Shown piece by piece: positions 6,474-54,472 of a stretch of DNA of 64,000 bases. Position 1 is the stretch's first letter, and each line of letters starts with the position of its first letter. A model generated the notes under the pieces. That model did no database searches. It saw only the letters and a list, made by a program, of their open reading frames with translations, and was not told the origin of the DNA. Where the stretch lies: the NCBI GenBank assembly GCA_963765675.1, contig CAVXXK010000001.1, forward strand, positions 32,001-96,000, in the 5' to 3' direction. Origin of the DNA: an uncultured delta proteobacterium (GTDB lineage: Bacteria; Desulfobacterota; Binatia; Binatales; Binataceae). The position numbers and the translations under genes were made by a program.

Positions 6474-8033
6474 GTGACCACCTACACTTACGATCCGATG
6501 GATCGCCGCGCATCAAGGACCGATGCGCTGGGCGCCGTGGAGAGCTACGCCTACGACGGAATGAGTAACCTTACCAGCCACACGGATCGCAATGGGAACG
6601 TAACCAGCTACAGCTACGACGGGCTGAACCGCAGGACGTTTGCGGGTTTTGGATACAACGGCAGCGGGTATCAGAGCACGATTAACTATACGTGGGACGG
6701 GGGCGACCGCCTGACGCAGGTGGTGGATTCAATTGCGGGAACCATCTCGCGGACTTACGACGGGCTCGACGACCTGACCGACGAGCAGACGCCGACGGGC
6801 GAGGTCAGCTACGCGTATGACAACGCGAGGAGGCGGACGTCGATGACGGTGGTGGGGCAGCCTGCGGCGGCCTCCTACGCGTGGGACAACGCCAACCGAT
6901 TGACCGGAATTACCCAGGGGAGCGCGTCGGTTGCGTTCAATTATGACAGCGCGAGCCGAAGGACTACGCTGACGCTGCCCAACGGGATCGAGGTGGGGTA
7001 TAGTTACGACAACAACTCGCGGATAAGCGGGATGACCTGGACGTTGGCCGGCAACCAGATCGGAGACCTCGAGTACGATTACGATGCGGATGGGCGCGTG
7101 GTCGAGAAGACGGGGAGCCTCGCGCAGACCAACCTGCCGCAGCCGGTGACCGGAAATACCTTCAATGCCGATAACGAGATGACGGCGTTCAACGGCACTC
7201 CGATGACTTACGACGCAAACGGCAACCTGCTCAACGATGGGAGCAACGCCTACGCTTGGGATGCGCGCAATCATCTGAGCGCGATCAGCGGTGCGAATGC
7301 AGCCAGTTTCGTCTATGACCCGTTGGGGCGGCGGATCAGCAAGACTATCGGGAGTACGACGACGAGCTTCCTGTACGATGGGCTCAACCCAGTACAGGAA
7401 CTTCAATCGGGCGCGCCGAGCGCGAACATGCTGACGGGGCTCGGGATCGACGAATACTTCCAGCGCAGCGATGCCTCGGGTGCGAGCAGCTACCTGACAG
7501 ATGCGCTGGGCAGCACGCTGGCGCTCGCAAACCCGGCGGGCGGCTTAGCGACCAGCTATACGTATGATCCGTTTGGGACCACTGCGGTGTCGGGTTCGGG
7601 TACAAATCCCTTCCAGTTCACCGGCCGAGAAAATGACCTCAACGGTCTTTATTATTTGCGTGCCCGTTACTACAACCCAGCGTTGCAGCGATTCCTGAGT
7701 CAGGATCCCATAGGAGTCCGAGGCGGGATGAATCTTTATGGCTATGTCGGAAATAACCCTGTAAACTCTTTCGATTTGTTGGGATTGGGCGGTACACCCT
7801 CGACGACGCCCACGCCGACCAGTTGTCCAACGCCGATTCCCGTGGATCCAACCCAGGCACCAACAACATGCCAAAAGCACCTAGCCTGTGAAATAGGATG
7901 GGAGGGCACATGTGACCAGTGCAACGAATTCGAGAATCCCCAGCCGGTATTTGTTTGTCACGTTGGCTGTGTCATTACAGGGGCGGTAGTATGCGAGATT
8001 GAGTTTCCCTGCAGCCTCCGGGGTAATGACTGA
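6474..8033 (+). CDS. N-terminally truncated Rhs/YD-repeat protein with Cys-rich C-terminal tip
   Basis: YD repeats; core motif NPFQFTGRE..GLYYLRARYYNP..RFLSQDPIG..NNPVNSFDLLG; ~80 aa tip with 9 Cys. Confidence 0.9.
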   Translation: MTTYTYDPMDRRASRTDALGAVESYAYDGMSNLTSHTDRNGNVTSYSYDGLNRRTFAGFGYNGSGYQSTINYTWDGGDRLTQVVDSIAGTISRTYDGLDDLTDEQTPTGEVSYAYDNARRRTSMTVVGQPAAASYAWDNANRLTGITQGSASVAFNYDSASRRTTLTLPNGIEVGYSYDNNSRISGMTWTLAGNQIGDLEYDYDADGRVVEKTGSLAQTNLPQPVTGNTFNADNEMTAFNGTPMTYDANGNLLNDGSNAYAWDARNHLSAISGANAASFVYDPLGRRISKTIGSTTTSFLYDGLNPVQELQSGAPSANMLTGLGIDEYFQRSDASGASSYLTDALGSTLALANPAGGLATSYTYDPFGTTAVSGSGTNPFQFTGRENDLNGLYYLRARYYNPALQRFLSQDPIGVRGGMNLYGYVGNNPVNSFDLLGLGGTPSTTPTPTSCPTPIPVDPTQAPTTCQKHLACEIGWEGTCDQCNEFENPQPVFVCHVGCVITGAVVCEIEFPCSLRGND

Positions 8034-9094: not shown

Positions 9095-10156
9095 TTCGGC
9101 TACAACGGGAGCGGCTATCAGAGCACGATCGGCTACACCTGGGACGGGGGTGACCGTCTGACGCAGGTGGTCGATTCAATTGCGGGAACGATCGCGCGGA
9201 CCTATGACGGGCTCGACGACCTGACCGACGAGCAGACGCCGCCGGGCGAGGTCAGCTACGGGTATGACAACGCGAGGCGGCGGACGTCGATGACTGTTGT
9301 GGGGCAACCTGCGGCGGCATCATACGCGTGGGACAACGCGAACCGGCTGACCGGAATTACCCAAGGGAGCGCTTCGGTTGCGTTCAATTATGACAGCGCG
9401 AGCCGAAGGACAACGCTGACGCTGCCCAACGGAATTGTGGTGGCGTATAGTTATGATAAAGATTCGCGGGTAAGCGCGATGACCTGGACGTTGGCTGGCA
9501 ACCAGATTGGAGACCTCGAGTACGATTACGATCCGGACGGACGCGTGATCGAGAAGACGGGGAGCATGGCGGCGACCAATCTGCCGCAGCCGGTGACTGG
9601 AAACGCCTTCAATGCGGACAACGAGATGACGGCGTTCAACGGTACCGCGTTGAGCTACGATCCGAACGGCAACCTGCTCAACGATGGGAGCAACACCTAC
9701 GCCTGGGACACGCGCAATCATCTGAGCGCGATCACGGGCGCAAATACCGCGAGCTTCGTCTATGACCCGTTCGGGCGGCGGATGAGCAAGACGATTGGAG
9801 GAGCGGCGACGAGTTTCCTCTACGACGGCCTAAATCCCGTGCAAGAGCTTCAAGCTGGAACGCCGAGTGCAAACATGTTTACGGGACTGGGGATCGACGA
9901 ATACTTTCAGCGTACCGACGCCTCGGGTGCGAGCAGTTATCTCACAGATGCGCTCGGCAGCACACTCGCATTGGCAAACTCGGCAGGCAGCCTCGCGACC
10001 AGCTACAACAAGGCCTTGGTTAGCTGTCTTGAAGGTTTGCGTGACGATCCGCACAACTGGCCTTTCCCGCCGGATCCAAGTGACGATCCGGGAGACATTG
10101 GCGCACATGAGTATAGAGAAGGCGCAATCTATATATTCCAGCATGGGGTGTGGTGA
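9095..10156 (+). pseudogene. Orphan Rhs fragment: paralogous core fused to a different C-terminal tail
   Basis: 9095-10005 aligns with 6648-7558; lacks the terminal core/DPxG motif and jumps to an unrelated tail. Confidence 0.8.
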
Positions 10157-10212: not shown

Positions 10213-10512
10213 ATGTTAGTATTTAATGCGTTTCTAGCGGCGTTGGCGGCGCTATTGCCCTTTTGGTTTTATCATATTGGGTTAGAGTATTCGTTCCTCC
10301 AGAAGCTGCCCTACATGTTCAGAGGCTTGGCGTGGGATCCAATCGCCTTGAACGTTCTGCTATCAATTCCTTTCGTATTTCTAGCAATTCGCGCTCTCAG
10401 GTTGGCCGGCTCATTTCGGAGGAGCGTTCGTCTGCTAATTATAGCAGCTCGGGTTTGTGTGTTTCATTTACATTTTGCGAACATTGTTCCTGTTGATAGT
10501 CTGGTCAATTAA
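10213..10512 (+). CDS. Small hydrophobic protein, putative second immunity protein
   Basis: AT-rich membrane ORF directly after the second Rhs tail. Confidence 0.4.
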   Translation: MLVFNAFLAALAALLPFWFYHIGLEYSFLQKLPYMFRGLAWDPIALNVLLSIPFVFLAIRALRLAGSFRRSVRLLIIAARVCVFHLHFANIVPVDSLVN

Positions 10513-22779: not shown

Positions 22780-24141
22780 ATGGCGTCGATGAAATTTCCT
22801 GAGGGATTTTTGTGGGGCACCGCGAGCGCCTCTTACCAGATCGAAGGAGCGTGGGACCACGACGGCAAGGGCGAATCGATCTGGGACCGCTTTTCACACA
22901 CACCCGGCCGGATCAAAAACTCGTGGACCGGCGACGTCGCGTGCGATTTCTACCATCGCTTCAAGGACGATATCGCGCTTGAGGCCGAACTCGGGCTGAA
23001 TGCCTCGCGCATCTCGCTTTCGTGGCCGCGCATCATGCCCGAAGGCAAGGGGCGCATCAACCAGAAGGGAATCGACTTCTACAAACGCGTCGCCGACGAA
23101 TTGCTCGCACGCAAGATCCAGCCTTGGGTCACGCTCTATCATTGGGATCTGCCGCAGGCGCTCGAGGAGCTCGGCGGATGGACCAATCGCGATCTCGCGG
23201 GCTACTTCGGCGACTATGCCGCCGCGTGCGCCGACGCGCTCGGTGATCGGGTCAAGCATTGGATGGTCTTCAACGAGCCGTGGATTTTTACCATCTTCGG
23301 CTACCTACTCGGTAATCATGCGCCCGGCCGGCGTGACGGCGCGCAGGCGATCCGGGCGACGCACGTCGTCAACCTGGCGCAGGGACTCGGGGTGCGCGCG
23401 CTGCGCGAGTCGCGTCACAAGCCGGCGGCGGTCGGAACCGCGTTCAGCATGTCGTCGGTCGAGCCCAACACCAATTCGCCCGAAGATAAAAGCGCCGCCG
23501 AACGATGGCATAGATTCAATAACCTGTGGTTCCTCGACACGGTGATGAAGGGTGAATATCCGAGGATCTACGACACCGGCGACGTCGCCGACCGGGTCGA
23601 TATGCGGCCCGGTGATATGGAGACGATCAAGGCGCCGCTCGATTTTATCGGAATCAATCTCTACTTCCGGAGCATTGTCGCGCACGACAACAACGCCGCG
23701 ACACTCAACGTGCGGCAGATTCATCCGGAAACCAAGGAGCTGACCGATTTCGGATGGGAGATTTCGCCGCGCGCGCTTTCGGACATGACGAAGACGATCG
23801 CCGCCGACTATCCCGGCCTGCCGATCTATATCACCGAAAACGGATGCTCTTACGGTGACGCGCCGGGCGCCGACGGACGGGTGCATGACACGCGGCGGAT
23901 CGATTTCACCCGGCGCTATCTGGCGGAGCTATGGCGCGCGATCGAGAAAGGCGCCGACGTGCGCGGCTACTTCCATTGGACGTTGACGGACAATTTCGAA
24001 TGGGCGGAAGGCTTCGCGCAGCGCTTCGGAATCGTCTACTGCGACTTCGATACTCTTGCCCGGACCGTCAAGGACAGCGGGCGATGGTACGGGCAGATCG
24101 CGCGTAACAACGCGCTCGATCGCGACCCGGGCGCGCAATGA
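22780..24141 (+). CDS. GH1 beta-glucosidase
   Basis: FLWGTASASYQIEG, FNEP, ITENG and DNFEWAEG motifs. Confidence 0.95.
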   Translation: MASMKFPEGFLWGTASASYQIEGAWDHDGKGESIWDRFSHTPGRIKNSWTGDVACDFYHRFKDDIALEAELGLNASRISLSWPRIMPEGKGRINQKGIDFYKRVADELLARKIQPWVTLYHWDLPQALEELGGWTNRDLAGYFGDYAAACADALGDRVKHWMVFNEPWIFTIFGYLLGNHAPGRRDGAQAIRATHVVNLAQGLGVRALRESRHKPAAVGTAFSMSSVEPNTNSPEDKSAAERWHRFNNLWFLDTVMKGEYPRIYDTGDVADRVDMRPGDMETIKAPLDFIGINLYFRSIVAHDNNAATLNVRQIHPETKELTDFGWEISPRALSDMTKTIAADYPGLPIYITENGCSYGDAPGADGRVHDTRRIDFTRRYLAELWRAIEKGADVRGYFHWTLTDNFEWAEGFAQRFGIVYCDFDTLARTVKDSGRWYGQIARNNALDRDPGAQ

Positions 24142-24740
24142 CGCCCGCAATGAACGGCGCGGAAATCCTGGTCTGGATCCACGTGCTCGCCTGGGCCGCC
24201 TACTTCGGCGCTCAGTTCGCGGTCATCTATATGCTGATGCCCGCGGCCGAGGGCGCGCCCGACGAGGCGCACCGCCGCGCGAGCTTGATAACCGGCTTCA
24301 AATTTTACAATCCGTTTTCGATCGGGATGCTGGGGATCGTCGTGATCACGGGCGCGATGCGGCTGACCGATCTCAAGGCGGAGATGAAGTTCGATTACTT
24401 TGCGCGAATCGGAGAGCCGCTCGCGATAAAGCTAGGGCTCGCGTTTCTGCTGATCTTCATCCAGACCTACATCACGTTCGGCTTATCATTCAGAATCGGC
24501 CGGCAGGAAGAGGTTGCCGCACACGGCGACGGACCTGCGTTCACGGTCGAGCAGTTGAACTCGATGCTGAAGCGGATTCGCGCGATGATCTGGGTAACGA
24601 TCGTACTGACTGCCGCGGTGGTACTCGTGTCGCTGACTATTGTGCGGCGCGCGGCGGATGAGGCGACTACTGAGTCGCGCATCTCCGCGCGCGCCGCATT
24701 GGATTTGGACTTTACCCGGCCGCAGGTTCCAGCCGGTTAG
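24138..24740 (+). CDS. CopD/DUF4149-like membrane protein
   Basis: Four TM helices, WIHVLA, TG..., KL.L pattern; ATGA coupling to the GH1 gene. Confidence 0.6.
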   Translation: MTPAMNGAEILVWIHVLAWAAYFGAQFAVIYMLMPAAEGAPDEAHRRASLITGFKFYNPFSIGMLGIVVITGAMRLTDLKAEMKFDYFARIGEPLAIKLGLAFLLIFIQTYITFGLSFRIGRQEEVAAHGDGPAFTVEQLNSMLKRIRAMIWVTIVLTAAVVLVSLTIVRRAADEATTESRISARAALDLDFTRPQVPAG

Positions 24741-24777
24741 GCGGCGCGCGCGTCGCAGGCGACCCTTGCCAGATCGC

Positions 24778-24957
24778 TCAGGCGAGCGCGAGGAACGAGC
24801 AGACGAGATAGGCGAGCGTGATGAGCCCAAACGCCACGCCGGGAAGCTCGGTAAGGAAGCTATTCTGCGCGTAACGGATGTAGTCAGTCGGCGCCGCCGT
24901 CTCAGTCGCGGGCGTCAGTCCTGCAAACCGGGTACGGTTGGTGGTCGTCGCATTCAT
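24778..24957 (-). CDS. 59-aa single-TM microprotein, paralog 3
   Basis: MNATTTNRTRFAGLTPATETAAPTDYIRYAQNSFLTELPGVAFGLITLAYLVCSFLALA*; SD GGGAG; below the ORF-track cutoff. Confidence 0.85.
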   Translation of the reverse strand: MNATTTNRTRFAGLTPATETAAPTDYIRYAQNSFLTELPGVAFGLITLAYLVCSFLALA

Positions 24958-24990
24958 GGTCGTAATTCTCCCGTGAGTTATCTTTTCGTG

Positions 24991-25170
24991 TTATGCCAAT
25001 GCCAGCAGGGACATCGCGATGTACGCCAGCGTGATAATTCCGAACGCCAGGCCCGGAAGCTCCGTCAGGAAGCTGTTCTGGGCGTAACGGATGTAGTCGA
25101 TCGGCGCCGCCGTCTCAGTCGCGTGAGTCAATCCTGCAATCTCGGTACGGTTGGTGGTCGTCGCATTCAT
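24991..25170 (-). CDS. 59-aa single-TM microprotein, paralog 2
   Basis: MNATTTNRTEIAGLTHATETAAPIDYIRYAQNSFLTELPGLAFGIITLAYIAMSLLALA*; SD GGGAG. Confidence 0.85.
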   Translation of the reverse strand: MNATTTNRTEIAGLTHATETAAPIDYIRYAQNSFLTELPGLAFGIITLAYIAMSLLALA

Positions 25171-25201
25171 GGTCGTCTTCTCCCTTCGATTGTTTCGGTT
25201 G

Positions 25202-25381
25202 TTATGCCAAGGCCAGCAGGGAAGTCACGATGTACGCCAGCGTGAGCAGCCCAAACACGAGTCCCGGCACTTCGTCGAGCCAGCTGTACTGCGCCAGCCG
25301 AACGGCATCGGTCGACGCCGCGGCTTCTGCCACTTCCTCATACCCAGCCAGCCTTGCCTCATTGGTCGTCGTCGCGTTCAT
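25202..25381 (-). CDS. 59-aa single-TM microprotein, paralog 1
   Basis: MNATTTNEARLAGYEEVAEAAASTDAVRLAQYSWLDEVPGLVFGLLTLAYIVTSLLALA*; SD GGAGG. Confidence 0.85.
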   Translation of the reverse strand: MNATTTNEARLAGYEEVAEAAASTDAVRLAQYSWLDEVPGLVFGLLTLAYIVTSLLALA

Positions 25382-25416
25382 TTTAAGTTCCTCCGAAACT
25401 TGACTTCGGGAGGTAA

Positions 25417-25432
25417 AGCAGGACCTGTGCCA
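25417..25432 (-). promoter_or_regulatory. Sigma54 (-24/-12) promoter for the microprotein operon
   Basis: Minus strand TGGCAC-AGGTC-CTGCT with exact GG-N10-GC spacing, ~35 nt upstream of the first ATG. Confidence 0.7.
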
Positions 25433-25693
25433 TTGGAAAAACTCTCGATTTCAGAAGGATTTTGCTTTCGCAGCCTGTGCATAATCTCAGTCAAAAGCCA
25501 AATAGTTAAGGATTTGTAAGGATTTTTCTGGAATCGCGTTTTGCGATACGCAAATTTCTTGTTTTCGACATTCGCGTGAATTTTCGGTTTTTGCGAAACA
25601 CTGCAAGCAATCCAATGCAGTAAACTGATTGCATTAGACCCTCCTTCACGGAGTCTTTTAACCGTCATCACAATCTGCGACAGTGCCTTCATC

Positions 25694-26455
25694 ATGGACG
25701 ACACGCCACCTGCTCCTTCGCCTCGCACGACCGGCGAGCTAATTGCTCCGACCGCAATCGCATCCGACGCGCCCCAGAGCGACCACCGGACCGCATTGAC
25801 CCGCGAGTCGATTGTGCGCTTCGGCGAGCAAATCATTTTCGTCACGGCGGTCGTCGGCGCGGTGGCGCTCGGGCTCGGTATCACCGACTACTTTCGCGAC
25901 CACCGGTACATCTCGGCCTATCTGATCGCGTACATCGGATTTCGTTTTGCGGAACTGATGGTCGGCGAGGATCCGCGGCATCCGGCCGAGGCTGCCCAGG
26001 CGCACGCGCAGCGCATCCAGACCCAGATCGCGGTGCTGATATTGTTTGCGGCCGCTCCGTTCGAGCGGACCTATCTATACGGCGGCGACCCGGAGAAATG
26101 GGTTGGCGCACTTGGACTGTTGCTCGAGCTTGGCGGCCTGTGGCTCGCGCTGGGAGCGCGTATCCAGTTGCATTTTTTTTCGTCCGACAAAAGCGGACGC
26201 GAACGGATGATCCTCGTAAAGACCGGATTTTTCCGCTACGTGCGCCATCCGGTTTACGCCGGCGTGCTGCTGGTGATGCTCGCGTGGCCGCTCGTGTTTG
26301 CGGCGCCGATCGTCGCGATCGCGACGCTGGCCGTGGGACTCACTATCGCGCGGCGTCAAATTCGCGCCGACGAAGCGATTCTGGCCGCGCGCTTTGGCAA
26401 AGAGTTCGAGGAATACTGTCACACGACGGACGCGCTCATCCCGAGCATCTGGTGA
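25694..26455 (+). CDS. Isoprenylcysteine carboxylmethyltransferase/PEMT family membrane protein
   Basis: LVKTGFFRYVRHPVYAG and DE..L..RFG.EFEEY....LIP motifs. Confidence 0.85.
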   Translation: MDDTPPAPSPRTTGELIAPTAIASDAPQSDHRTALTRESIVRFGEQIIFVTAVVGAVALGLGITDYFRDHRYISAYLIAYIGFRFAELMVGEDPRHPAEAAQAHAQRIQTQIAVLILFAAAPFERTYLYGGDPEKWVGALGLLLELGGLWLALGARIQLHFFSSDKSGRERMILVKTGFFRYVRHPVYAGVLLVMLAWPLVFAAPIVAIATLAVGLTIARRQIRADEAILAARFGKEFEEYCHTTDALIPSIW

Positions 26456-26485
26456 GCTTGGCAAAAACCAATTCGCGATACGTGA

Positions 26486-27058
26486 TTATGCGGTGCGGGC
26501 GCGGCGCTGGCAGCGGACTTGATTGCAAAACTTCTCGTCGGCGCGCGCGGCGATGAATTCGCTGCCACATCGCGCACACTTCACGATCGATTCTCCCGCC
26601 GCGAGCTGCGGCGGGGGCGCGGATTGCGCCACCGCGGCGGTCATGCTCTCGGTCGATTCGCCGTGCGCGCCGAGAGTTGCCAGAGCGTCGGCGCGTTCGT
26701 TGAGATCGTCGCCGGCGTGGCCGCGCACCCATTCGAATTCGACCTTGCGCTGCGCAGCTTCGGCGTCGAGCTGGCTCCACAGCTCCAGGTTCGCTTTGCG
26801 TTTCCATGCGCGCGTCATCGTGTTGACGACGTACTGGCTGTCGCTGCGCAGGATCACGCGCGCGCCAGGCTGGATCGCGCGCAAGGCCTGAATCGCCGCG
26901 GTCAGCTCCATCTGGTTGTTGGTGGTATGGCCGCCGTGGCCGTTGATCTCGCGGCGCGATCCGTCGGGCGCAATAATCACGACGCCCCATCCGCCGCGCC
27001 CGGGATTTCCATGGCACGCGCCGTCGGCGTACGCGAGATAGGCATCGCGAGAGGGCAT
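26486..27058 (-). CDS. rnhA: Ribonuclease HI with C-terminal Cys motif
   Basis: DGACHGNPGRGGWG, TTNNQMEL, SDSQY, WVRGHAG and NERADALA motifs. Confidence 0.92.
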   Translation of the reverse strand: MPSRDAYLAYADGACHGNPGRGGWGVVIIAPDGSRREINGHGGHTTNNQMELTAAIQALRAIQPGARVILRSDSQYVVNTMTRAWKRKANLELWSQLDAEAAQRKVEFEWVRGHAGDDLNERADALATLGAHGESTESMTAAVAQSAPPPQLAAGESIVKCARCGSEFIAARADEKFCNQVRCQRRARTA

Positions 27059-27067
27059 CGTGAGATT

Positions 27068-28526
27068 CTACGCTGCGCCCCGCGTACGAGTTAAGGCGTC
27101 GAACCAATCGAGATAGCGGCGTGCGGATTGCGCCCAGGAAAAATCCTGCGCGAAGCAGTTCGTCACGAGCTTGCGCCACGCCGGCGGCTTCGCGAATGCG
27201 GCGGTCATCCGCGTGATCGCGGCGACCAACTCGTCGGCGGTCATATTTCTCGAACACAAAACCGGTTCCGCGTCCGGTCGCGGGATCAAATTCGGTGACG
27301 GTGTCGCGCAAGCCTCCGGTCGCGCGGACGATCGGCGCGGTGCCGTACTTGAGCGCGTACATCTGGGTCAGCCCGCACGGCTCGAACCGCGACGGCATCA
27401 GGAACGCGTCGCAGCCAGCCTGGATGCGATGCGCCATCGGGTTGTCGAATTCCAGAATCACGCGGAACTGGTCCGGGAAGCGTTTGCGCGCGGCGCTGAA
27501 AAATTCCTCGAGCGCCTTGTCGCCACTCGCCAGCATCACGAGCTGCACCCCGAGCGCCATCACCTCGTCGAGCGCGTCGCGCAACAGGTCGCAGCCCTTT
27601 TGCGTGGTAAGCCGCGTGACCATCCCGATAAGCGCGCGATCGTCCCATCCCGGCAGTTCGAGCGAGTCGCGCAGGTCGCGCGCGCATACGCGCTTGCCGT
27701 CGGGCATCGCCGGCGTATATTGCGCGGCGATCAGATCGTCGTGCGCGGGGTTCCATTCGCGATAGTCCGCACCGTTCAAGATTCCCACAAAGCGCTCGCC
27801 CTTGTTCCGCAGCACGCCTTCGAGGCCAAAACCGAGATCAGGATCGGCGGTGACTTCGCGCGCGTAGCTCGGGCTGACGGTCGAGACACCATCGGCGAGG
27901 ATGATTGCGCCCTTCATCAGATTCATGCGGCCGAAGAATTCGAGCCCGTCGATTCCGAAGTACGCGGGATCGATTCCGAGCAGCGGAAATTTCGCGGCGT
28001 CGTAGATTCCCTGGAAGGCAAGATTGTGAATCGTAAAGGCGGTCGTGGCGCGCGCAAAACGTTCGCGTATCGCCGCGTCGGCGCGCGCAACGATCGGCGC
28101 GACCGCGGCATGCCAGTCATGCGCATGCAAAACGTCGGGCCTGATAATTTCGGCGGCCGCCATCGCAGCGGCTTTTCCGAAGAAGGCGAAGCGGCGCAGA
28201 TTGTCGGGAAAGTCGCCTTCCTTGTCGCCGTATACTCCGTCGCGCGCGAAGAACTCCGGATGGTCGATCATAAAGATCGGCACGCCGTGGGAATCCTCGG
28301 CGCGCAGCACGCGGAACCGATGCGCCTCAGCGCCGAGATGCGCCGTCATCGCGGGGCCGACCGGCTCCGCCTTGAGCTTCGAGGTGATTGACTTGTAACC
28401 GGGAACGATAACGGCAGCCTCGGCGCCCGAATCTTTCAATGCGGCCGGCAGCGCACCGATGACATCGGCGAGTCCGCCGACTTTCGCCCACGGAGAAATT
28501 TCTGCTGCGACGATCGCGATCTTCAC
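27068..28526 (-). CDS. glgA: Glycogen synthase (apparent +1 frameshift near 27240)
   Basis: KVGGLADV, HAHDWH, MPSRFEPCGLTQ; C-terminal DFSW.QSA..Y lies in another frame. Confidence 0.9.
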
Positions 28527-30640: not shown

Positions 30641-31433
30641 ATGACAGCCCCGCACTATGGCGACGTATCGATCGCCGTGAATGAAACCGACCATGTCGCA
30701 CTCGCCGAGATTCATCGGCCGCCGCACAACTTTTTCGATCATCAATTGATCAAGGATCTCGCCGACGCGTTCGAAGCCCTCGACACCGACGCCGGATGCC
30801 GCGCGATCTTGCTCGCAGCGGAGGGGAAATCATTTTGCGCAGGCGCGGACTTCAGCAAGCGTCAGACGCCCGCGGCCGGCGCCACGCCCGCGACCGGGAA
30901 TCCGCTCTACTCGGAAGCGGTGCGGCTCTTTCGATGCAAGAAGCCTGATAGTCGCGGCGATCCAGGGTGCCGCGATCGGCGGAGGCTTCGGCCTTGCAAT
31001 GGCCGCCGACTTTCGCGTCGTCACTGCCGACGCGCGCTTCGCAGCGAACTTCGTCAAGCTCGGAATCCATCCGGGCTTCGGACTGACCTATACGCTGCCG
31101 CGGATTATCGGTATCCAGAAAGCGAATCTGATGTTCTACACCGGGCGCAGGATCAACGGCGAAGAAGCGCTTGCGTGGGGACTCGCTGATTCGATCGTCG
31201 CGCCAGAAAAGCTCCGCGAGACCGCTCGTGCACTCGCCGCCGAAATCGCGGAGAACGCGCCGCTTGCCGTCCTCTCGACGCGCGCGACGATGTGCGCGGG
31301 CCTCGCCGACGCGGTCAAGGCGCAGACCGATATCGAGTTCCGCGAACAGAGCTGGCTGATGCGTACCGAGGACCATCGCGAAGGCGTCAAGGCTGTCTCC
31401 GAGCGCCGCCCCGGCCGCTTCCAGAGCCGCTGA
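30641..31433 (+). CDS. Enoyl-CoA hydratase/isomerase (frameshift near 30945)
   Basis: RPPHNFF and SFCAGADF in one frame; FAANFVKLGIHPGFG in the next. Confidence 0.8.
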
Positions 31434-38493: not shown

Positions 38494-39468
38494 TTACCGC
38501 CCGAGCTTGCGCGCCACTTCCTTCGCGAAGTAGGTCAGGATCAAATCCGCGCCGGCGCGGCGGATGCTGGTCAGCACTTCCATTGTCGCGCGCTCTTCGT
38601 CGATCCAACCGTTGATTCCCGCCGCTTTGATCATCGAGTACTCCCCCGAGACGTTGTACGCCGCAACCGGAACATTGAATTTCTGCTTCACCCGCCAGAT
38701 CAGATCGAGATACGGCAGAGCCGGCTTGACCATCACGATATCGGCGCCCTCCTCGAGATCGAGCGCGACCTCGCGCAGCGCCTCATCGCCGTTTGGCGGA
38801 TCCATCTGGTATGAGCGGCGATCACCGAACTGCGGGGCCGAATCGGCCGCATCACGAAACGGACCATAGAAAGCCGATGCGAACTTCGCTGAGTACGCCA
38901 TTATCGCGACATGCGCGAAGCCGTTTTCATCCAGCGCGCGGCGAATCGCGCCGACGCGCCCGTCCATCATATCCGACGGCGCGACGATATCGGCGCCGGC
39001 GCGCGCGTGCGAAAGCGCTTCGCGCACGAGCAGCTCGAGGGTCGCGTCGTTATCGACGTCGCCGCCTTTGACCGCGCCGCAATGCCCGTGGTCGGTGTAT
39101 TCGCACATGCATACGTCGGTGATAACCGCGAGTGCGGGGACGCGTTCCTTGACTTCGCGAATCGCGCGCTGCACTTCGCCGTCGTCGTTCCACGCCTCGC
39201 TGCCGATCGCATCTTTACGCTCCGGGATTCCGAACAGGATCAGCGCGGGCACGCCGGCCGCGTGAAGCTCGCGCGCCTCGGCGACAATATTGTCCACCGA
39301 CATCTGCGCGACTCCCGGCATCGAGGGGATCGGCCGCTTGATTCCGCGGCCGGGGCATACGAAGAGCGGCTGGATCAGGTTGTCGGCGGCGAGCCGCGTC
39401 TCCCGCGTCATCCTGCGCAGCGTTTCGGTGCGCCGCAGGCGCCTTGGGCGATTTATCGGAAATGCCAT
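38494..39468 (-). CDS. hemB: Porphobilinogen synthase
   Basis: [29 protein letters not shown] and MVKPA motifs. Confidence 0.97.
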
Positions 39469-39525
39469 TTTTGAACTGACCCCGCTTGCGAACCCAGCGG
39501 ACGGATTATATCGCGCGCGCGAGTC

Positions 39526-41100
39526 TTAAAAAGCCCCGCGGGCTCGCGGCCTGGCCGCGGTTTCGTAGTGTTCGCGAATCGCCCCGATCAACGCCGGAAC
39601 CGTGTATTCCGAGGGCTGCACCACAACTTTGAACCCGCGCGCGACCGCGGTCGCCGCCGTGATTGGACCGATCACCGCAGCGTTGAGTCCGCGAGCAGAG
39701 GCGCCGACCAGGTCGCAAAAATTCTCGACCGTGCTCGAGCTTGTGAATGCGACGAGATCGATCTCTCCGGCCGCCACCATCGCGCGGATCCTCGCGGACT
39801 GCGCGCCCGATGGTTTGACTGTGCGATAGACTGGCGCAACTTCTACCATGCGCGCGCCCTGCTCGAGCAGAATTTTCGGCAGAATCTCACGCGCTACCTG
39901 CGCGCGCGGAATCAGGATACTCGCACCGCGAATCCGGCGCGCGCCGATCGCCGGGATAATCGCCTCGGCGCGGTACTCGGACGGCACCGCCGCGACGCGC
40001 AGCGCGTAATGCTCGAGCGCGCGCGCCGTCGCGGGACCGATCGCGCACAGGCGCGCACGTCCGAGGCCGCGCAGATCGTGGCCGAGCGCGCGCAGGCGCG
40101 CGACGAAGCCATCGACCCCGGTCGCACTGGTGAAGATCACCCAGTCGAATTTCTCGATCTTGGCGATCGCGCGGTCCAGCGCGGAGTAGCTTGACGGTTC
40201 CGCAGTGGCGATAGTGGGAAACTCGATCGCGTCAGCTCCGAGGGCGCGCAACTCCATCGCGAATGCGCCGCCGTGGGCGCGCGACCGCGTCACAACGATC
40301 CGCCGACCGAACAGCGGCATCTTCTCGAACCATCCGAGCTCGCCGCGCAGCGCGGCGCATTCGCCCACAACCAGGACGGCCGGTGCGCCGAGCTTTGCGC
40401 GTTCGCATTCAGCCGCCAGCGTCTTGAGAGTCGCCAGTACCGTCGCCTGCGCGGCGGTCGTGCCCCACTGGACGGCGGCGGCGGGTGTCGCGTCGGGAAG
40501 GCCTGCGGCTGAGAGGCGTGCAAGCACTGAGCGCATCCGCGAGGTGGCCATCAGGATAACGATCGTCCCGCGATTTTTCGCCGCGCGCGCCAGATCGGTC
40601 CACGGTATCGAGCCGCGCGCCGTCTTCGACTCGTCCTCGTGTCCCGTGACGAACGCGACGAACGAACCTAACCGGCGATGCGTCAGCGGGATACCCGCGA
40701 ATGCGGGCGCGGCAATCGCGGACGTGATTCCGGGAACGATCTCGAATTTCACTCCGGCTTTCGCAAGCGCCTGCGCCTCTTCACCGCCGCGGCCGAAGAT
40801 AAACGGATCGCCGCCTTTGAGCCGCACGACCTGATGTCCCTTGCGCGCACGCTCGATAAGCATCCGGTTGATTTCGGCCTGCTCGACAATTTCTCCGCCA
40901 CCGCTCTTCTTTCCGGCGTAAATCAATTCCGCGCCGGAGGGCGCGAGTTCGAGCAATTCGGGATTCACCAGATTGTCGTACAGAACCACCTCGGCGCGCC
41001 CGAGGCACTGCGCGCCGCGAACGGTTATCAGGTCCGGCGCGCCGGGTCCGGCGCCAACCAGATATACTGTGCCGGCGCGCGCGCTCCCGCGCTCACTCAT
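39526..41100 (-). CDS. cobA: Uroporphyrinogen-III C-methyltransferase / uroporphyrinogen-III synthase fusion
   Basis: GAGPG, RLKGGDPFIFGRGGEE; C-terminal HemD domain with IFTS, IGPAT and FTSSST. Confidence 0.92.
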   Translation of the reverse strand: MSERGSARAGTVYLVGAGPGAPDLITVRGAQCLGRAEVVLYDNLVNPELLELAPSGAELIYAGKKSGGGEIVEQAEINRMLIERARKGHQVVRLKGGDPFIFGRGGEEAQALAKAGVKFEIVPGITSAIAAPAFAGIPLTHRRLGSFVAFVTGHEDESKTARGSIPWTDLARAAKNRGTIVILMATSRMRSVLARLSAAGLPDATPAAAVQWGTTAAQATVLATLKTLAAECERAKLGAPAVLVVGECAALRGELGWFEKMPLFGRRIVVTRSRAHGGAFAMELRALGADAIEFPTIATAEPSSYSALDRAIAKIEKFDWVIFTSATGVDGFVARLRALGHDLRGLGRARLCAIGPATARALEHYALRVAAVPSEYRAEAIIPAIGARRIRGASILIPRAQVAREILPKILLEQGARMVEVAPVYRTVKPSGAQSARIRAMVAAGEIDLVAFTSSSTVENFCDLVGASARGLNAAVIGPITAATAVARGFKVVVQPSEYTVPALIGAIREHYETAARPRARGAF

Positions 41101-42067
41101 CGGCGATCAACGCCTTCGCGCCGCGCGCGAGCATCCGCTCGGCCAGCGCCCGTCCGGCGCCAGCCGCGATCGGTGGCGACAGATTGAACTCTACCGGCGC
41201 TTCCAGATCGTCGGCGATCGACTGCTTGCCGTCCGGGCTGAAGAGGATCGCGCGAATCGAGAGCTTCTCGTCGTCGGCGATCGCGCGCACTCCGAGCGGC
41301 GTGGTGCATGAAGCTCCAAGCTTTGCCAGAAACGCACGCTCGGCCGCAGTCTCGTAATGCGCACGCGAATCGTCGAGAGCTTCGAGCGCGCCGCCAAGCT
41401 CTGCCGAAATTCCGCTGGAACGGATTTCGATCGCAAGGGCGCCTTGCCCTCCGGCCGGTATGAAATCGCGCTCATCGAGGATCGTGAATTTGATCTCGGC
41501 CGCCCGCCCGAGGCGATTGAGTCCCGCAGCCGCGATTATGATCGCATCGAAGGTGCCCTCAGCCACTTTTTTGAGCCGCGTATCGACATTGCCGCGCAGC
41601 GCAACGATTTCGAGCGCGGGATTTTTTCGCAGCGCCTGAAATCGCCGCCGCATTGAGGAGGTTCCAACCCGCGCGCCCGCCGGCAATGCGGCAAAATCGC
41701 CACCCGCCGCCGACACCAGGATATCGCACACGTCCTCGCGCTCCGGCACCGCCGCAATTCGGAAACCGTCGGGAAGCACCGCGGGTAGATCCTTCATCGA
41801 ATGCACCGCGAGATCGATCTTCCCGTCGGCGAGCGCCTGCTCGAGCTCGCGGATGAAAAGCCCCTTGCCTCCCACGCGTGCGAGCGACGCGTCCTTCATT
41901 TTGTCGCCACTGGTGCGAATCGGAGTGATCTCGATCGCTTTGCCCGGCATAACCGCCGCCAGGCGCGACTTGACGTACTCGGCTTGTGCTGTCGCGAGCG
42001 CGCTCGGACGCGTCCCGATTCTGATTGTGGCAAGTTTTGACGCGCGCGCGCCCGGACTAGAACTCAT
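41093..42067 (-). CDS. hemC: Hydroxymethylbilane synthase
   Basis: IGTR.S.LA, GGKGLF, AVHSMKD and LRGNVDTRL motifs. Confidence 0.95.
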   Translation of the reverse strand: MSSSPGARASKLATIRIGTRPSALATAQAEYVKSRLAAVMPGKAIEITPIRTSGDKMKDASLARVGGKGLFIRELEQALADGKIDLAVHSMKDLPAVLPDGFRIAAVPEREDVCDILVSAAGGDFAALPAGARVGTSSMRRRFQALRKNPALEIVALRGNVDTRLKKVAEGTFDAIIIAAAGLNRLGRAAEIKFTILDERDFIPAGGQGALAIEIRSSGISAELGGALEALDDSRAHYETAAERAFLAKLGASCTTPLGVRAIADDEKLSIRAILFSPDGKQSIADDLEAPVEFNLSPPIAAGAGRALAERMLARGAKALIADE

Positions 42068-43409
42068 CGTCCTGGTCGTCCTGATCATCCTGATCGTCGG
42101 CGCCTAATGCTTCCAGCTCAGCGCTGGCGGCGGAGATCTCGCCGCACAGAAGCTTGCGCGCGACTTCGGCCGCGTATGCGCCCTCGGCGGCGTTTGCGCC
42201 GCTGGTACGCAGGCCCTGCAAAATCCGATGCAGCAGCTTGTTGGTGAGGCCGCGGGTCAGCACCTCGACCCGCTCGCGCTCGGCAGGTTCGAGCGCCGAG
42301 AGCCATCCGCGATGCCGCCCCATTTCGAGGTCGCGCAGACGGTCGATACTGTAGCGGATATCCTTGATCGTCGGCACGAGATCGAGCCCGTTCATCCAGC
42401 GCCAGAACGCTTCGAGTTCGAGTTCGACGATCTCCTCGGCCTTCGCGGCTTCGCGTTCGCGTTCGGCGCGCGATTTGTGCACCACCTGCGCGAGATCGTC
42501 GATATCGTAGAGGTAAACGTTTTCGAGCGAGTTCATCCGCTCGTCGAAGTTGCGCGGCACGCCGAGATCGATCAGGAAGATCGGCTTGTAGCGCCGCTCC
42601 TTTATGATCGTTTCGAATTCATCGAGTGCGATTACCGGACGCGTCACCGCGACCGAACCGATCACGACGTCGGCAATCTTGAGATAGGGCCTGTAGTTGT
42701 CGAACGGGACCGCGGTGCCGCCAAGCTCGCGCGCGAGCGCGACCGCGTGATCGAAAGTGCGCGAGGTGATGATGAGCGATTCGATTCCGATCGCGCGCAA
42801 TTGCCGCGCGGTCAGCTCCGCCATCTTTCCCGCCCCCATCAGCATCACGGTCTTGTCTTTGAGCGAGTCGAAAATCTGTCCGGCCAGCGCCACCGCAGCC
42901 GCGCTCACCGAGACCGAGCCGTGCCCGATGAGAGTTGCCTTGCGAATTCTCTTGGCGACCGTGAAGCCCTTGTGGAATGCGCGATGCAGCACCAGCCCGA
43001 CGGTGCCCGCCTCCGCCGCGTTCGCGTACGCGAGCTTCACCTGGCCCAAAATCTGCGGCTCTCCGACCATCATCGAGTCCAGGCTCGCGCCGACGCGAAA
43101 CAGATGCCGCGCGGCCTCGCGCCCCGTCAGGCGATAGAGCGCGGGGGCGAACGCCTCGAGCGCGACTGCGCGATCAGTCGCGATAAATTCAGCCGCGTCC
43201 GCCAGTGCGCGCTCGCAATCCGCGGCGACGCCGACAATCTCAACCCGATTGCAGGTCGAGAGGATTGCCGCTTCGCTGATCGACGCCACGCGCTCCCTCA
43301 GGCGCACGAGCGCCGGCGCGATATCGCCGTCCGCGTACGCCAGCCGCTCGCGCACCGCGACCGCGGCAGTGCGATGGTTCAGCCCGAGTATGAAGAGATT
43401 CTGCTCCAT
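42057..43409 (-). CDS. hemA: Glutamyl-tRNA reductase
   Basis: STCNRVE, SLDSMMVGEPQILGQVK and GAGKM motifs. Confidence 0.96.
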   Translation of the reverse strand: MEQNLFILGLNHRTAAVAVRERLAYADGDIAPALVRLRERVASISEAAILSTCNRVEIVGVAADCERALADAAEFIATDRAVALEAFAPALYRLTGREAARHLFRVGASLDSMMVGEPQILGQVKLAYANAAEAGTVGLVLHRAFHKGFTVAKRIRKATLIGHGSVSVSAAAVALAGQIFDSLKDKTVMLMGAGKMAELTARQLRAIGIESLIITSRTFDHAVALARELGGTAVPFDNYRPYLKIADVVIGSVAVTRPVIALDEFETIIKERRYKPIFLIDLGVPRNFDERMNSLENVYLYDIDDLAQVVHKSRAEREREAAKAEEIVELELEAFWRWMNGLDLVPTIKDIRYSIDRLRDLEMGRHRGWLSALEPAERERVEVLTRGLTNKLLHRILQGLRTSGANAAEGAYAAEVARKLLCGEISAASAELEALGADDQDDQDDQDDEF

Positions 43410-43412
43410 CGC

Positions 43413-44240
43413 CTAACCGAAACTGCCTCCGTGCTTGCCCGGATAAATCAGCGACACGCCCACGAACGAACCCACCAGTACCACGAAAACGACGATTGTC
43501 AGCGCAGCGGCGCGCCGCCCGCGCCATCCTACCGTCAGCCGCGATTCGAGCAGGCCGGCGTAGAGGATCCAGATCGCGAGCGACCACGACTCGACCGGCT
43601 CCCATGACCAGAAATGGCCCCAGGTCGCATCCGCCCAAATCGCGCCGGTCACGATCGCGAGGCTCAGCAGCGCGAAACCCCATCCGAGCAGCGAATAGTT
43701 GATCCGGTCAAGCTTCTCGAGGCTCGGCAGCCGCTCTGACGGCGGACCGAGCGGGCGCTTGGCCTTGAGCCGCGATTCATACGCCAGATACACCAAGCTC
43801 ACGCTGGCTGCCAGCACGAACATCGAGTAGCCCAAAATCGCGAGCGTGACGTGGATCGGCAGCCACACGCTTTGCAGGGTCGCGGGCAGCACGATCCTGC
43901 CGCCTTTCATAATGATTGTCGACGCACCCAGGGCGAGCGCCACTGCCGCGGCCGTGTACGCGCCGATCGCGGCCATCTGCAGCCTGACGATCAAAATCAA
44001 TCCGGCCAGAGCAGTCAGCCACGCCAGAAACGACAACGCCTGCGGAAAGTTCGCGACCGGGATATTGCCGGCCTGGAGTCCGCGCGTCGCCAGATCGAAC
44101 GCGTGAAAAACCGCGCCCGCACCAAGCAGCAAGGTGGCCCATCCGGACGCGCGCGAGACTCGCGCGACCCGGCCAACGATAAAAATCGCCGCCGCGAGCG
44201 CGTAACAAACCAGCGCCGGTGCGAGCCACAACGTTTCCAT
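43413..44240 (-). CDS. ccsA: Cytochrome c assembly protein CcsA/HemX-like
   Basis: TGAIWA..WG.FWSWEPVE tryptophan-rich motif; position in the hem operon. Confidence 0.8.
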   Translation of the reverse strand: METLWLAPALVCYALAAAIFIVGRVARVSRASGWATLLLGAGAVFHAFDLATRGLQAGNIPVANFPQALSFLAWLTALAGLILIVRLQMAAIGAYTAAAVALALGASTIIMKGGRIVLPATLQSVWLPIHVTLAILGYSMFVLAASVSLVYLAYESRLKAKRPLGPPSERLPSLEKLDRINYSLLGWGFALLSLAIVTGAIWADATWGHFWSWEPVESWSLAIWILYAGLLESRLTVGWRGRRAAALTIVVFVVLVGSFVGVSLIYPGKHGGSFG

Positions 44241-44266
44241 AATAATCAGACGGCACTCAGCGGCGA

Positions 44267-44980
44267 TCAGCCGCCGCTCGAGGCCTCATGCGGCGCGAAG
44301 CGGAACCACTCGCGCGCGTCCTCGCCCGTGCCCTTCGCGAGCGTATCAAGCCCTACGCCAAGATGTGCCATCAGAATCCGCTCGACAGCCGCGCGATCGC
44401 CGGCGCGCAACTGGCCGGTGAGATCCGACGCCGCCAGCGCCGCGAGCTTTCTTCCGCGCGAAGAAATATCGTCGTCGTTCGCCAACAGAAACTCGCGCGC
44501 GACGCGCAACAGCTTGAGCGCCACTGCGTATTCCCATCCGAACTGATCCTCGAGCTCGCGCCGGATTCGCGCCGCCGTGGCGGGACTCGCGCCCGAGGTC
44601 GACACTGCTATTTGCAAATCGCCGCGCCGCACGACCGCGGGCGCGATAAAGTCGCACAGCTCGGGCTCGTCCGCGACGTTGAGCATGACGCCAAGCTCGC
44701 GCGCTTCAGCCGAGATCTCGCGATGCACTCCCGGATCATCAGTAGCGGCGAATGCGAGGTCGAATCCGCGCAGGTCGCCGCGCTTCCATTTGCGCGCGTG
44801 ATAAGTGATCGCCGCCGATTCGGCCAGGATCGCCAACTCCCGCACCAGCCGCGGGCTGATGACGGTGACCTGCGCTCCCGCCGCGAGCAGTTGCGTGACC
44901 TTGCGCGCGGCAATATCGCCGCCGCCGACCACCACGCATCGGCGCCGTTCCATCGCGAGAAATATCGGCAGATAGCCCAT
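44267..44980 (-). CDS. Precorrin-2 dehydrogenase/sirohydrochlorin ferrochelatase (CysG N-terminal/SirC-like)
   Basis: VVGGG.IA.RK, NVAD.PELCDF and STSGASP motifs. Confidence 0.9.
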   Translation of the reverse strand: MGYLPIFLAMERRRCVVVGGGDIAARKVTQLLAAGAQVTVISPRLVRELAILAESAAITYHARKWKRGDLRGFDLAFAATDDPGVHREISAEARELGVMLNVADEPELCDFIAPAVVRRGDLQIAVSTSGASPATAARIRRELEDQFGWEYAVALKLLRVAREFLLANDDDISSRGRKLAALAASDLTGQLRAGDRAAVERILMAHLGVGLDTLAKGTGEDAREWFRFAPHEASSGG

Positions 44981-50916: not shown

Positions 50917-51023
50917 GGCGTCACCTGTTTTTCGCGATCCGGGTGGATCGCTCCGCCCTGAGGTCACGGGATTTTAGGATGAAGGAAATGATTCTCGGAG
51001 AGCATCGGGTTAAAGCATTTCGG

Positions 51024-51257
51024 TTAATGCACGCTGCTTGCCTCAGCGACGTAACGGCGGACTTCGGGATCTAGCACGACGACTCGACGGCCAAAATGGG
51101 CGGCTCGCAGGTGGCCGCGCTTGATCTCAAGACGCAGGAAGGGAACCGAGACGCTCAGGCTCTGAGCCAGATCGTTGAGGGTCCACCCCAGTTTCGGAGC
51201 AACGTGCCGGGCGGCGTCGGAATTGGATGGGATTGGAGAATTGGTATGAACAAACAT
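51024..51257 (-). CDS. Excisionase-like HTH protein
   Basis: WTLNDLAQSLSVS...L..EIKRG.L.A..FGRRV (HTH_17-like); adjacent to the integrase. Confidence 0.75.
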   Translation of the reverse strand: MFVHTNSPIPSNSDAARHVAPKLGWTLNDLAQSLSVSVPFLRLEIKRGHLRAAHFGRRVVVLDPEVRRYVAEASSVH

Positions 51258-51320
51258 GATGACAAAAAACCTCGGAGATTGCTTTCACCGGACGGAAAGA
51301 GCGTTTCAGTGGAGTTACTA

Positions 51321-51351
51321 GCTACATAGCTATATCCACGCATTATGTCAA
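51321..51351 (-). promoter_or_regulatory. xis-int promoter with operator
   Basis: TTGACA-N17-TATGTA; palindrome GCTACATAGC at 51321-51330. Confidence 0.65.
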
Positions 51352-54469: not shown

Positions 54470-54472
54470 GAC

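Follow-up and report, generated by a model that had tools for sequence, protein, structure and literature searches.

Several groups of very small membrane proteins have been described. Phospholamban and sarcolipin, the 'regulins', are tail-anchored single-helix regulators of membrane proteins. PspB, PspC and PspG are small bitopic inner-membrane proteins that depend on sigma-54 and an enhancer-binding protein for their signal-induced synthesis, and two of them act together. The antennae of light-harvesting complexes (LHC) are built from paired single-helix peptides of 50-60 residues, encoded in tandem and in a fixed order, sometimes in several copies, and pilins carry an N-terminal hydrophobic helix behind a leader that is cleaved at a G/xxxxEY or G/FTLIE-type site, their genes being sigma-54 dependent in several bacteria. 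Bacterial small membrane proteins further include AcrZ, MgtS, KdpF, CydX and CcoQ/CcoS, some of which are treated in PMC12648545. Here we describe an operon of three genes for 59-residue proteins, at positions 24778-25381 on the minus strand of a 64,000-nucleotide stretch (the window; contig CAVXXK010000001.1, positions 32,001 to 96,000) from an uncultured bacterium of the Binataceae.

The products resemble the regulins and the AcrZ-type proteins in being shorter than about 60 residues, in placing a segment, predicted to be on the cytoplasmic side, ahead of one helix that runs to or near the C-terminus, and in having no enzymatic domain; action by helix-helix packing is presumed for that class, and the one-sided conserved face found here fits it. 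Unlike those proteins, they have no sequence or profile similarity to them and no partner encoded in their own operon, and they occur as two subtypes in a fixed order, one of them duplicated, behind a dedicated sigma-54 type promoter in a single uncultured lineage. With the Psp proteins they would share, as predicted here, the small bitopic build, the type of control and action in pairs. However, no Psp model matches any of 43 diverse members of the family at E<=1, neither PspA nor PspF is encoded near the arrays, and length, motifs and C-terminal anchor all differ. The reading that we put forward, and to which we would give an even chance, is that the operon encodes a signal-induced pair of tail-anchored microproteins, A and B, that use one face of their helices to act on one another and, probably, on some larger membrane protein.

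Selection, subtypes and architecture of the microproteins

The three genes are as follows.

25202 to 25381, minus strand: gene 1, subtype A microprotein, 59 residues (open reading frame and membership of the position-1 clade)
24991 to 25170, minus strand: gene 2, subtype B microprotein 'B1', 59 residues (open reading frame and subtype tree)
24778 to 24957, minus strand: gene 3, second subtype B microprotein 'B2', 59 residues (open reading frame; a later duplicate within B)

These open reading frames (ORFs) were picked out in a first-pass annotation made from the sequence alone, and its coordinates, spacers and ribosome-binding sites were all reproduced: each ORF has 59 codons plus a stop (180 nt), the spacers measure 31 and 33 nt, and each ATG is preceded, at 8-10 nt, by GGAGG or GGGAG. 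The annotation had proposed a search of related genomes for copy number and synteny. A pattern scan with the single pattern [FL]LTELPG[VLI][AV]F, restricted to one genome per species, gave 17 loci from other genomes, and a profile search in six frames found ORFs of 57-59 codons in all 17, so that the same ORFs recur in related genomes with their frame conserved. A Shine-Dalgarno (SD) core lies within 20 nt upstream of 42 of the 42 copies in the window and the 17 loci.

Purifying selection, first argued from codon divergence at constant length, is borne out by ratios of nonsynonymous to synonymous substitution (dN/dS) that lie far from 1 among orthologues, with a median of 0.18 for A or first-position genes (119 pairs) and 0.17 for B or other copies (299 pairs); between the A and B groups the median is 0.26 (325 pairs). 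Third codon positions vary most (variable alignment columns at first, second and third positions, of 61: 33, 20 and 51 for A; 35, 26 and 55 for B). Identity between the window and the loci ranges from 61 to 98% and matches that of the flanking enzymes (glycogen synthase, methyltransferase, beta-glucosidase and acyl-CoA dehydrogenase), which is 59-96% in the same genome pairs. GC content by codon position agrees with the coding DNA of this genome (GC3 0.76-0.78), and the microprotein ORFs are intact although at least three ordinary genes in the window carry frame breaks. On the plus strand, ORFs of 201 and 122 residues overlap the array in the window, but the open stretch varies from 65 to 202 codons across 16 arrays and is not conserved, and these overlapping frames are therefore regarded as high-GC artefacts. 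By these comparisons of sequence, the three ORFs are real coding genes under purifying selection, arranged as a co-oriented and tightly spaced operon.

Described initially as three tandem paralogues, the genes are indeed tandem and related, but they are not equivalent: they represent two subtypes in the fixed order A, B, B', of which only B has been duplicated. In 16 of 16 multi-copy arrays (the window and 15 loci) an A gene comes first and is followed by one or two B genes. The A proteins are marked by NEARLAG, an acidic N-domain (mean net charge of the first 40 residues -3.4, n=16) and AQY(S/A)WL(N/D)E, within the core AQY.WL(D/N)E(V/L)PG, and the B proteins by NR(T/A)x(F/I)AG and PTDYIRYAQNSFLTELPG, the core of gene 2 being NRT..AG..PTDYIRYAQNSFLTELPG. 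The 16 position-1 genes form one clade (support 98/99), and six position-2 genes form another (99/99). A third gene, present in 8 of the 16 multi-copy arrays, falls on the B side of the tree and arises by duplication within B, the duplication in locus L015 looking independent; genes 3 and 2 of the window are separated by a dN of 0.116 and a dS of 0.687. Two loci have one gene each, that of L008 lying at a contig edge and that of L017 being divergent. Outside these loci, A-type and B-type locus tags at NCBI are adjacent in two further metagenome-assembled genomes. When 173 retrieved homologues were scored, 78 were A-like, 39 B-like and 56 in between, and in a FastTree phylogeny of 187 non-redundant members 61 sequences group as an A clade (support 0.82), whose relation to the others is not resolved, nor is that of the others among themselves.

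The translations contain the features by which the proteins were first grouped, namely a common MNATTTN start, an Ala/Thr-rich linker, a D..R.AQ.S(F/W)L.E(L/V)PG motif and an LALA end, the last found in 31 of 41 copies. The C-terminal membrane span without a polar tail that had been read from the window is likewise supported: the best hydrophobic window of 19 residues is 41-59 (mean Kyte-Doolittle value 2.3), the protein ends at residue 59, and a charge occurs in the last 19 residues of only 1 of 16 A and 1 of 25 B copies (2 of 41). In AlphaFold2 models the B protein (48-row alignment) has a first segment, residues 1-22, at a predicted local distance difference test (pLDDT) score of about 50, then a helix from 23 to 58, with pLDDT 93-98 over residues 31-59; the A protein (68 rows) is helical from 3 to 58 with a mean pLDDT of 80.7, its first third being less confident. 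With a single hydrophobic span at the extreme C-terminus, no signal peptide and a polar N-terminus (MNATTTN), the proteins fit the tail-anchored type, a class defined by structure and not by homology.

It is the C-terminal two-thirds that are conserved and the linker (residues 14-23) that varies. Among the 187 members, E37, P39 and G40 at the membrane boundary are kept in 187, 184 and 186 respectively, and R28, A30, Q31, L35 and the N-terminal tip are also nearly invariant. Within the span the conserved positions G40, F43, G44, T47, Y50, I51, S54, L55 and L58 lie on one face of the helix. The conservation moment at 100 degrees over residues 40-59 is 0.42, which none of 5000 shuffles reached, their mean being 0.145. 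A face of small and polar residues of this kind would be expected of specific helix-helix contact, not of a passive anchor.

N-X-T sequons are present in the N-terminal tip (N2-A3-T4 in all three proteins, N7-R8-T9 in both B copies), and Thr, Ala and Pro abound in the B linker; the sequons might matter if the N-domain were periplasmic and glycosylated, which we offer purely as an idea.

The family reaches well beyond the arrays. A single-sequence search returned 25 clusters, a library of representatives at 50% identity returned 49 (two of them long proteins with partial, probably low-complexity matches), and a profile of 43 members returned 693 clusters at 90% identity, in which no Pfam domain is present. 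Of the 120 clusters listed from these 693, 12 bear organism labels, each naming Ca. Binataceae or Ca. Binatus; a few names given to family members by the Joint Genome Institute, 'cyanate permease' among them, are plainly mistaken. Ca. Binataceae stands in the titles of nine of the 17 locus records, and the others carry older delta-proteobacterial, Thermodesulfobacteriota or Proteobacteria labels, of a type that is often assigned to Binatota according to passages of PMC8262859.

No recognised family emerged, in agreement with the first-pass annotation. Pfam and NCBIfam gave nothing for the three proteins of the window except one sub-threshold Colicin_V match, and when the 43 diverse members were scanned singly against both at E<=1, no family appeared in more than two. 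The scattered matches, each in one or two of the 43, are at chance level. Two of the 43 members match CvpA, the colicin V production protein (PF02674), over 37 of 144 profile positions and with 16.4 bits where the cut-off is 29.3; this was dismissed as a chance hydrophobic match. PHROGs, PADLOC and a tblastn search of plasmids gave no matches, nor did a profile search of PDB sequences at E<=10 or Rfam over 24000-26200 at E<=1. The nearest clusters in the ESM Atlas are nameless hypotheticals, one of them labelled Binatota; the named families there, with scores of 0.79-0.83, lie in the chance range. Fused or longer forms were not found among the best 8000 candidates, which is weak evidence of absence, and three apparent longer relatives proved to be over-extended starts or a read-through tail. 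As far as the retrieved sequences go, the module stands alone and is never appended to a larger protein. The literature searched, on the lineage, sigma-54, and tail-anchored and small proteins, yielded nothing describing this family, and the label 'undescribed system' given to the operon at first sight holds as far as the literature and database searches reach. By sequence, it is a new family within the general class of bacterial small membrane proteins, from which its two-subtype layout and dedicated sigma-54 type control set it apart.

A sigma-54 type control region

Sigma-54 promoters have a consensus of the TGGCAC-N5-TTGCW type, with GG and GC doublets one helical turn apart, and show no basal activity without their activator, an AAA+ protein whose enhancer sites lie about 80-200 bp upstream. 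The region upstream of gene 1 (310 nt, 41% GC against 62% in the window) contains the following elements.

25570 to 25598, no strand assigned: enhancer-like block 1, TTTCGCAAAAACCGAAAATTCACGCGAAT in the minus-strand reading, a related copy of block 2 located 50 bp upstream of it
25532 to 25556, no strand assigned: enhancer-like block 2, AATTTGCGTATCGCAAAACGCGATT in the minus-strand reading (nearly invariant columns in a 17-sequence alignment, A2, in which block 1 is conserved too)
25467 to 25484, minus strand: conserved block TTATGCACAGGCTGCGAA between the enhancer-like sites and the promoter (conserved columns in A2)
25442 to 25458, minus strand: conserved block CCTTCTGAAATCGAGAG, likewise between the enhancer-like sites and the promoter (conserved columns in A2)
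25417 to 25432, minus strand: sigma-54 type -24/-12 element TGGCACAGGTCCTGCT (GG at 25430-25431, GC at 25418-25419; predicted transcription start near 25406)
25390 to 25413, minus strand: inverted repeat, in which a C-rich tract just after the -12 element pairs with the SD of gene 1 (minimum free energy folds)

The promoter element, the chief clue to function and one that the first-pass annotation had passed over, is a constant of the arrays. TGGCAY-N5-NTGCT occurs 51-56 nt 5' of the first ATG in 17 of 17 upstream regions; it is matched once in the 64-kb window, where 0.11 matches are expected, and 17 of the 18 matches in the 320 kb of window and loci precede an array. L017 keeps the element despite having all-different neighbours, which indicates that promoter and gene move together. 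A scan of 24300-25800 showed no sigma-70-like site. Upstream, the two enhancer-like blocks form a direct repeat (D1) of 16 nt at 81% identity and 50-nt spacing; in 15 of 17 sequences their TCGCAAA cores are exactly 50 bp apart and keep their distance from the promoter. The blocks lie some 110-165 nt upstream of the -24 element. Block 2 holds a perfect palindrome, TTGCG-TAT-CGCAA (25541-25553), which occurs once in the window and, in the 320 kb, at 14 sites before arrays and two elsewhere. This palindrome resembles LuxO-type sites, a tentative lead. Paired sites upstream of a promoter are the usual layout for an enhancer-binding protein, and these are candidates for such sites. Judged by this architecture, transcription in vivo would depend on sigma-54, and the promoter with its enhancer-like sites argues for induction by a signal and against constitutive, abundant expression.

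Three AAATCCTT-type repeats (minus-strand reading) are also found between the enhancer-like sites and the promoter, at 25455-25466 and 25507-25526, two of them in direct tandem; their conservation across loci is partial.

Further constraint is seen at the starts of the cistrons. The first 20 nt of each (25362-25381, 25151-25170 and 24938-24957) read ATG AAY GCG ACG ACS ACC AA, and this motif occurs in the window at the three cistrons only. The four-fold degenerate codons 3, 4 and 6 are frozen (GCG in 28 of 28, ACG in 27 of 28 and ACC in 28 of 28 copies), whereas other invariant residues vary freely at synonymous sites. This pattern of codon use suggests a constraint at the RNA level or a common target of a translational regulator.

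The leader is less uniform. Of 14 leaders folded (z-scores +0.85 to -4.1), 11 have the SD paired in their minimum free energy structure, but RNAalifold on a MAFFT alignment of the leaders found 0 pairs, the inner stem sequences of the inverted repeat differ between lineages, and under canonical sigma-54 geometry its 5' arm lies upstream of the transcript. A leader hairpin as a conserved RNA mechanism was not adopted, on the grounds that alifold finds no pairs, that single folds are mixed and that the 5' arm is outside the mRNA. The inverted repeat probably straddles the transcription start and could act as an RNA hairpin or as a DNA operator. At the other end of the operon, folds of the 75 nt downstream of the last gene were made for all 18 sources (the window and the 17 loci), and a terminator scan found no canonical terminator on the array strand. 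The structure present in the window is as follows, and is probably the 3' end or a stabiliser.

24759 to 24777, minus strand: GC-rich stem-loop that immediately follows the last stop codon, lies within the 37 nt separating the array from the convergent gene and lacks a T-tract

A proposed induced A/B pair and its rivals

The proposed A/B pair would work as follows. The operon, specific to the Binataceae or Binatota, would be silent until an enhancer-binding protein encoded at a distance activates the sigma-54 promoter from the two sites 50 bp apart. Its output would be two kinds of protein of about 59 residues, one A and one or two B, each with a flexible N-tail that carries the conserved tip MNATT(T)N and is followed by one long helix. 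The last 19-20 residues would cross the cytoplasmic membrane with nothing after them, the N-terminus most likely being cytoplasmic. A and B would pack against each other through the conserved face, and probably also against a larger membrane protein, and the pair would serve as an inducible membrane effector or regulator in the manner of phospholamban-type regulins or the small membrane proteins of the Psp response. It is from the hydrophobic span, the helix face and the control region that we infer membrane insertion, topology, A-B contact and a regulatory role.

Several observations weigh against this proposal. The frozen codons 3, 4 and 6 and the inverted repeat of the leader point to extra layers of control that the model leaves unexplained. 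The fixed A-B order could reflect the shared ancestry of close genomes rather than a need for contact, and in other members of the family an intermediate type replaces the clean split into A and B. No candidate partner is genetically linked to the family outside the Binataceae, and the neighbours of L017 differ. Topology is ambiguous by charge, with two to three Arg in the N-domain and none after the span, and the N-domain of A is acidic. Finally, no Sigma54_activat domain was found among 58 window proteins scanned, a GAFTGA-type motif has 0 matches in the 320 kb, and no enhancer-binding protein is encoded within 10 kb of any array; if the promoter is used as proposed, its activator would therefore act in trans. 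A prediction of the A+B complex (alignments A4 and A5), which scored 0.03 against a mark of 0.32 and was made without control runs, weighs neither way.

The same features could be read as those of peptides that perturb membranes. A and B would then oligomerise into a leak or pore that depolarises or silences the cell's own membrane, in the manner of YohP, type I toxins or holins, and the need to hold such peptides in check would explain the tight control. Hydrophobic peptides that are small, have one span and carry a conserved helix face of small and polar residues would suit this role, a sigma-54 promoter is silent without its activator, the SD lies within a predicted stem in most leaders, the nucleotide constraint at the cistron starts could be a target of translational repression, and tandem paralogues are typical of type I toxins. 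In published abstracts YohP, itself a small membrane protein, is described as causing depolarisation. However, no antisense RNA or antitoxin is evident (Rfam being empty, and the antisense strand having been checked for ORFs only), the locus is a stable syntenic chromosomal site and not a mobile one, purifying selection is strong across the lineage and maintains a fixed A/B pair, a long acidic and conserved N-domain is untypical of such toxins, and neither PADLOC nor PHROGs recognises the proteins. We consider a membrane-perturbing role rather unlikely.

Only slightly less probable, though still improbable, is that E-L-P-G and the C-terminal helix together form a sorting or processing signal, of the PEP-CTERM/exosortase or LPXTG/sortase kind, from which the N-terminal part is released or attached elsewhere. 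The near-invariance of E37, P39 and G40 at the boundary speaks for such a signal. PEP-CTERM proteins (TIGR02595) also have a Pro-containing motif ahead of a C-terminal helix, and an N-terminal part rich in Thr and Asn and a large intergenic region with a sigma-54 motif are further points in common: in the sections of PMC1569441 that bear on this, PEP-CTERM genes are mostly single-gene operons with large intergenic regions containing sigma-54 motifs and are enriched in Thr, Ser and Asn, and the sigma-54 motif is served by an NtrC-type regulator. Here, however, the motif is ELPG and not PEP, a signal peptide is missing, and so is a basic cluster behind the helix, charges being almost absent from the last 19 residues. 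Neither TIGR02595 nor any other sorting-domain model matched any of the 43 members at E<=1, and the scanned genes of the window include no exosortase, rhombosortase or sortase domain. In the best 8000 candidates the module makes up the entire protein and is never a tail on larger ones, and the strongly conserved helix face is unlike that of a disposable anchor.

A third alternative involves one of the two genes that flank the array, the methyltransferase.

25694 to 26455, plus strand: membrane methyltransferase of the ICMT/PEMT superfamily, divergent from the array and sharing its control region (Pfam PEMT, ICMT and DUF1295 matches)
24138 to 24740, plus strand: 200-residue multi-span membrane protein, convergent with the array, its start overlapping the stop of a glycoside hydrolase family 1 (GH1) beta-glucosidase gene (ATGA)

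The NCBIfam matches of the methyltransferase, which include methanethiol and lipid A methyltransferases, all fall below curated cut-offs. The enzyme is divergently upstream in 16 of the 18 sources, being missing in L008, which has no upstream DNA, and in L017; the GH1 beta-glucosidase is likewise present in 16 of 18. The 200-residue protein adjoins the array in several loci and belongs to no family, its weak CopD, CbtA and DUF2269-like matches being far below threshold. In L017 an efflux system (OEP, HlyD-type, YtcA) replaces the methyltransferase and the beta-glucosidase. Since these genomes are closely related and L017 departs from the arrangement, linkage to these neighbours cannot be taken as functional.

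It has nevertheless been considered that the microproteins are substrates or partners of this methyltransferase, with the C-terminal carboxylate (...LALA-COOH) being methyl-esterified, a notion compatible with the A/B pair proposed above. The enzyme diverges from the same control region and has an ICMT/PEMT-type domain, and proteins that end with a hydrophobic helix, most of them in LALA, would put their carboxylate at the membrane surface. Against this, the synteny holds in close relatives only and is lost in L017, the enzyme family has many non-protein substrates, the favoured N-in topology would put the C-terminus on the side away from S-adenosylmethionine, and there is neither a Cys nor a prenylation motif. 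The chance that the enzyme acts on the microproteins is, in our judgement, small. It is equally small for the fuller version, in which operon and methyltransferase would be one system, methyl-esterification of the C-terminus switching insertion, assembly or activity in what would be a prokaryotic pathway of C-terminal carboxyl methylation with microproteins as its dedicated substrates.

Pilin, coat and processed-precursor roles, all raised in the first-pass annotation, find no support. The microproteins do resemble Flp/Tad and type IV pilins in being small, hydrophobic and often tandem paralogues, but their helix is C-terminal instead of N-terminal, they have no leader or signal peptide, no G/xxxxEY or other prepilin motif (the Flp G|xTxxEY motif, in particular, is absent, as had been seen), no pilin match in Pfam and no fused forms among the best 8000 candidates, and no prepilin peptidase nor any other conserved secretion, maturation or export genes lie near the arrays. 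The related idea that they are precursors of secreted peptides made on the ribosome (a bacteriocin, a pheromone, or a ribosomally synthesised and post-translationally modified peptide) draws on the tandem small paralogues, on their conserved N-terminus and on the efflux system beside the L017 member. It strikes us as very unlikely: a conserved C-terminal two-thirds behind a variable linker is the reverse of a leader/core layout, double-glycine and other leader motifs are missing, the conserved surroundings include no maturation enzyme, peptidase-ABC exporter or immunity gene, and the C-terminal 19 residues are a plain membrane span.

Hardly credible, lastly, is a pigment-binding antenna of alpha and beta polypeptides that would serve, without His, as a scaffold for the orphan bacteriochlorophyll or carotenoid pathway of Binatota, since two paralogous single-helix peptides of about 59 residues in fixed tandem order with extra copies of one, and the conserved T47, Y50 and S54 that could hydrogen-bond a cofactor, are set against the lack of His in the last 22 residues of all 41 copies (as first noted from the window), of any LHC match in the 43 members at E<=1 or in the PDB profile search, of a periplasmic aromatic tail after a helix that ends at the extreme C-terminus, and of any relation of the sigma-54 control and gene neighbourhood to photosynthesis clusters, while in the portions of PMC8262859 concerned with pigments Binatota have most bacteriochlorophyll genes and no recognisable reaction centre, an unrecognisable photosystem is raised, and the authors favour a non-phototrophic reading.

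Other features of the window and the meaning of the family

A number of further observations concern the surroundings. About 220 nt downstream of the divergent member in L017, a 34-residue ORF on the plus strand (10313-10417 of that locus) encodes a hydrophobic core and a basic C-terminal tail in an unrelated sequence. In the window, single frame switches relative to intact orthologues were located in the genes for glycogen synthase (27236-27240), Lon protease (~33402) and enoyl-CoA hydratase (30930-30946). They account for an odd 696-residue ORF at 26436-28526 that overlaps an RNase H gene and for the splitting of Lon into two ORFs, and are probably assembly indels or pseudogenes. Two Rhs-repeat ORFs with a gap between them (6474-8033 and 9167-10156) and a glucoamylase (GH15 with a glucodextranase N-domain) split over two overlapping ORFs (60318-62898) may be further frame breaks. 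At 49621-56284, genes for a phage-type integrase, a TrwC relaxase and a TrwB/TraG coupling protein stand one after another and lead on to small unassigned ORFs and a DUF2274 protein; the arrangement resembles that of an integrative conjugative element or of what is left of one. On the minus strand, a tetrapyrrole cluster at 38494-44980 encodes 5-aminolevulinate dehydratase, a fused uroporphyrinogen methylase/synthase, porphobilinogen deaminase and glutamyl-tRNA reductase, together with a cytochrome c assembly protein and a siroheme synthase-like protein.

Annotation regularly overlooks small membrane proteins, and the logic by which they are expressed is understood for very few. In this case Binatota, an uncultured soil lineage known from metagenomes only, keeps a pair of microproteins as conserved as core enzymes, and does so behind a legible regulatory architecture that comprises a sigma-54 type promoter, two phased enhancer-like sites and a frozen start region in every cistron. 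The enhancer motif provides a handle for finding the activator and the signal; by the same token, the fixed A/B order predicts a hetero-oligomer, and the conserved helix face predicts the residues in contact. Should the proteins turn out to be an ordinary stress-induced membrane peptide, they would still constitute a clean, phylum-specific marker family, which pipelines at present call 'hypothetical' or misname. If instead they regulate a transporter or a respiratory complex, or are modified by the methyltransferase, the short list of bacterial microproteins that are understood would gain a new family and perhaps a new modification.

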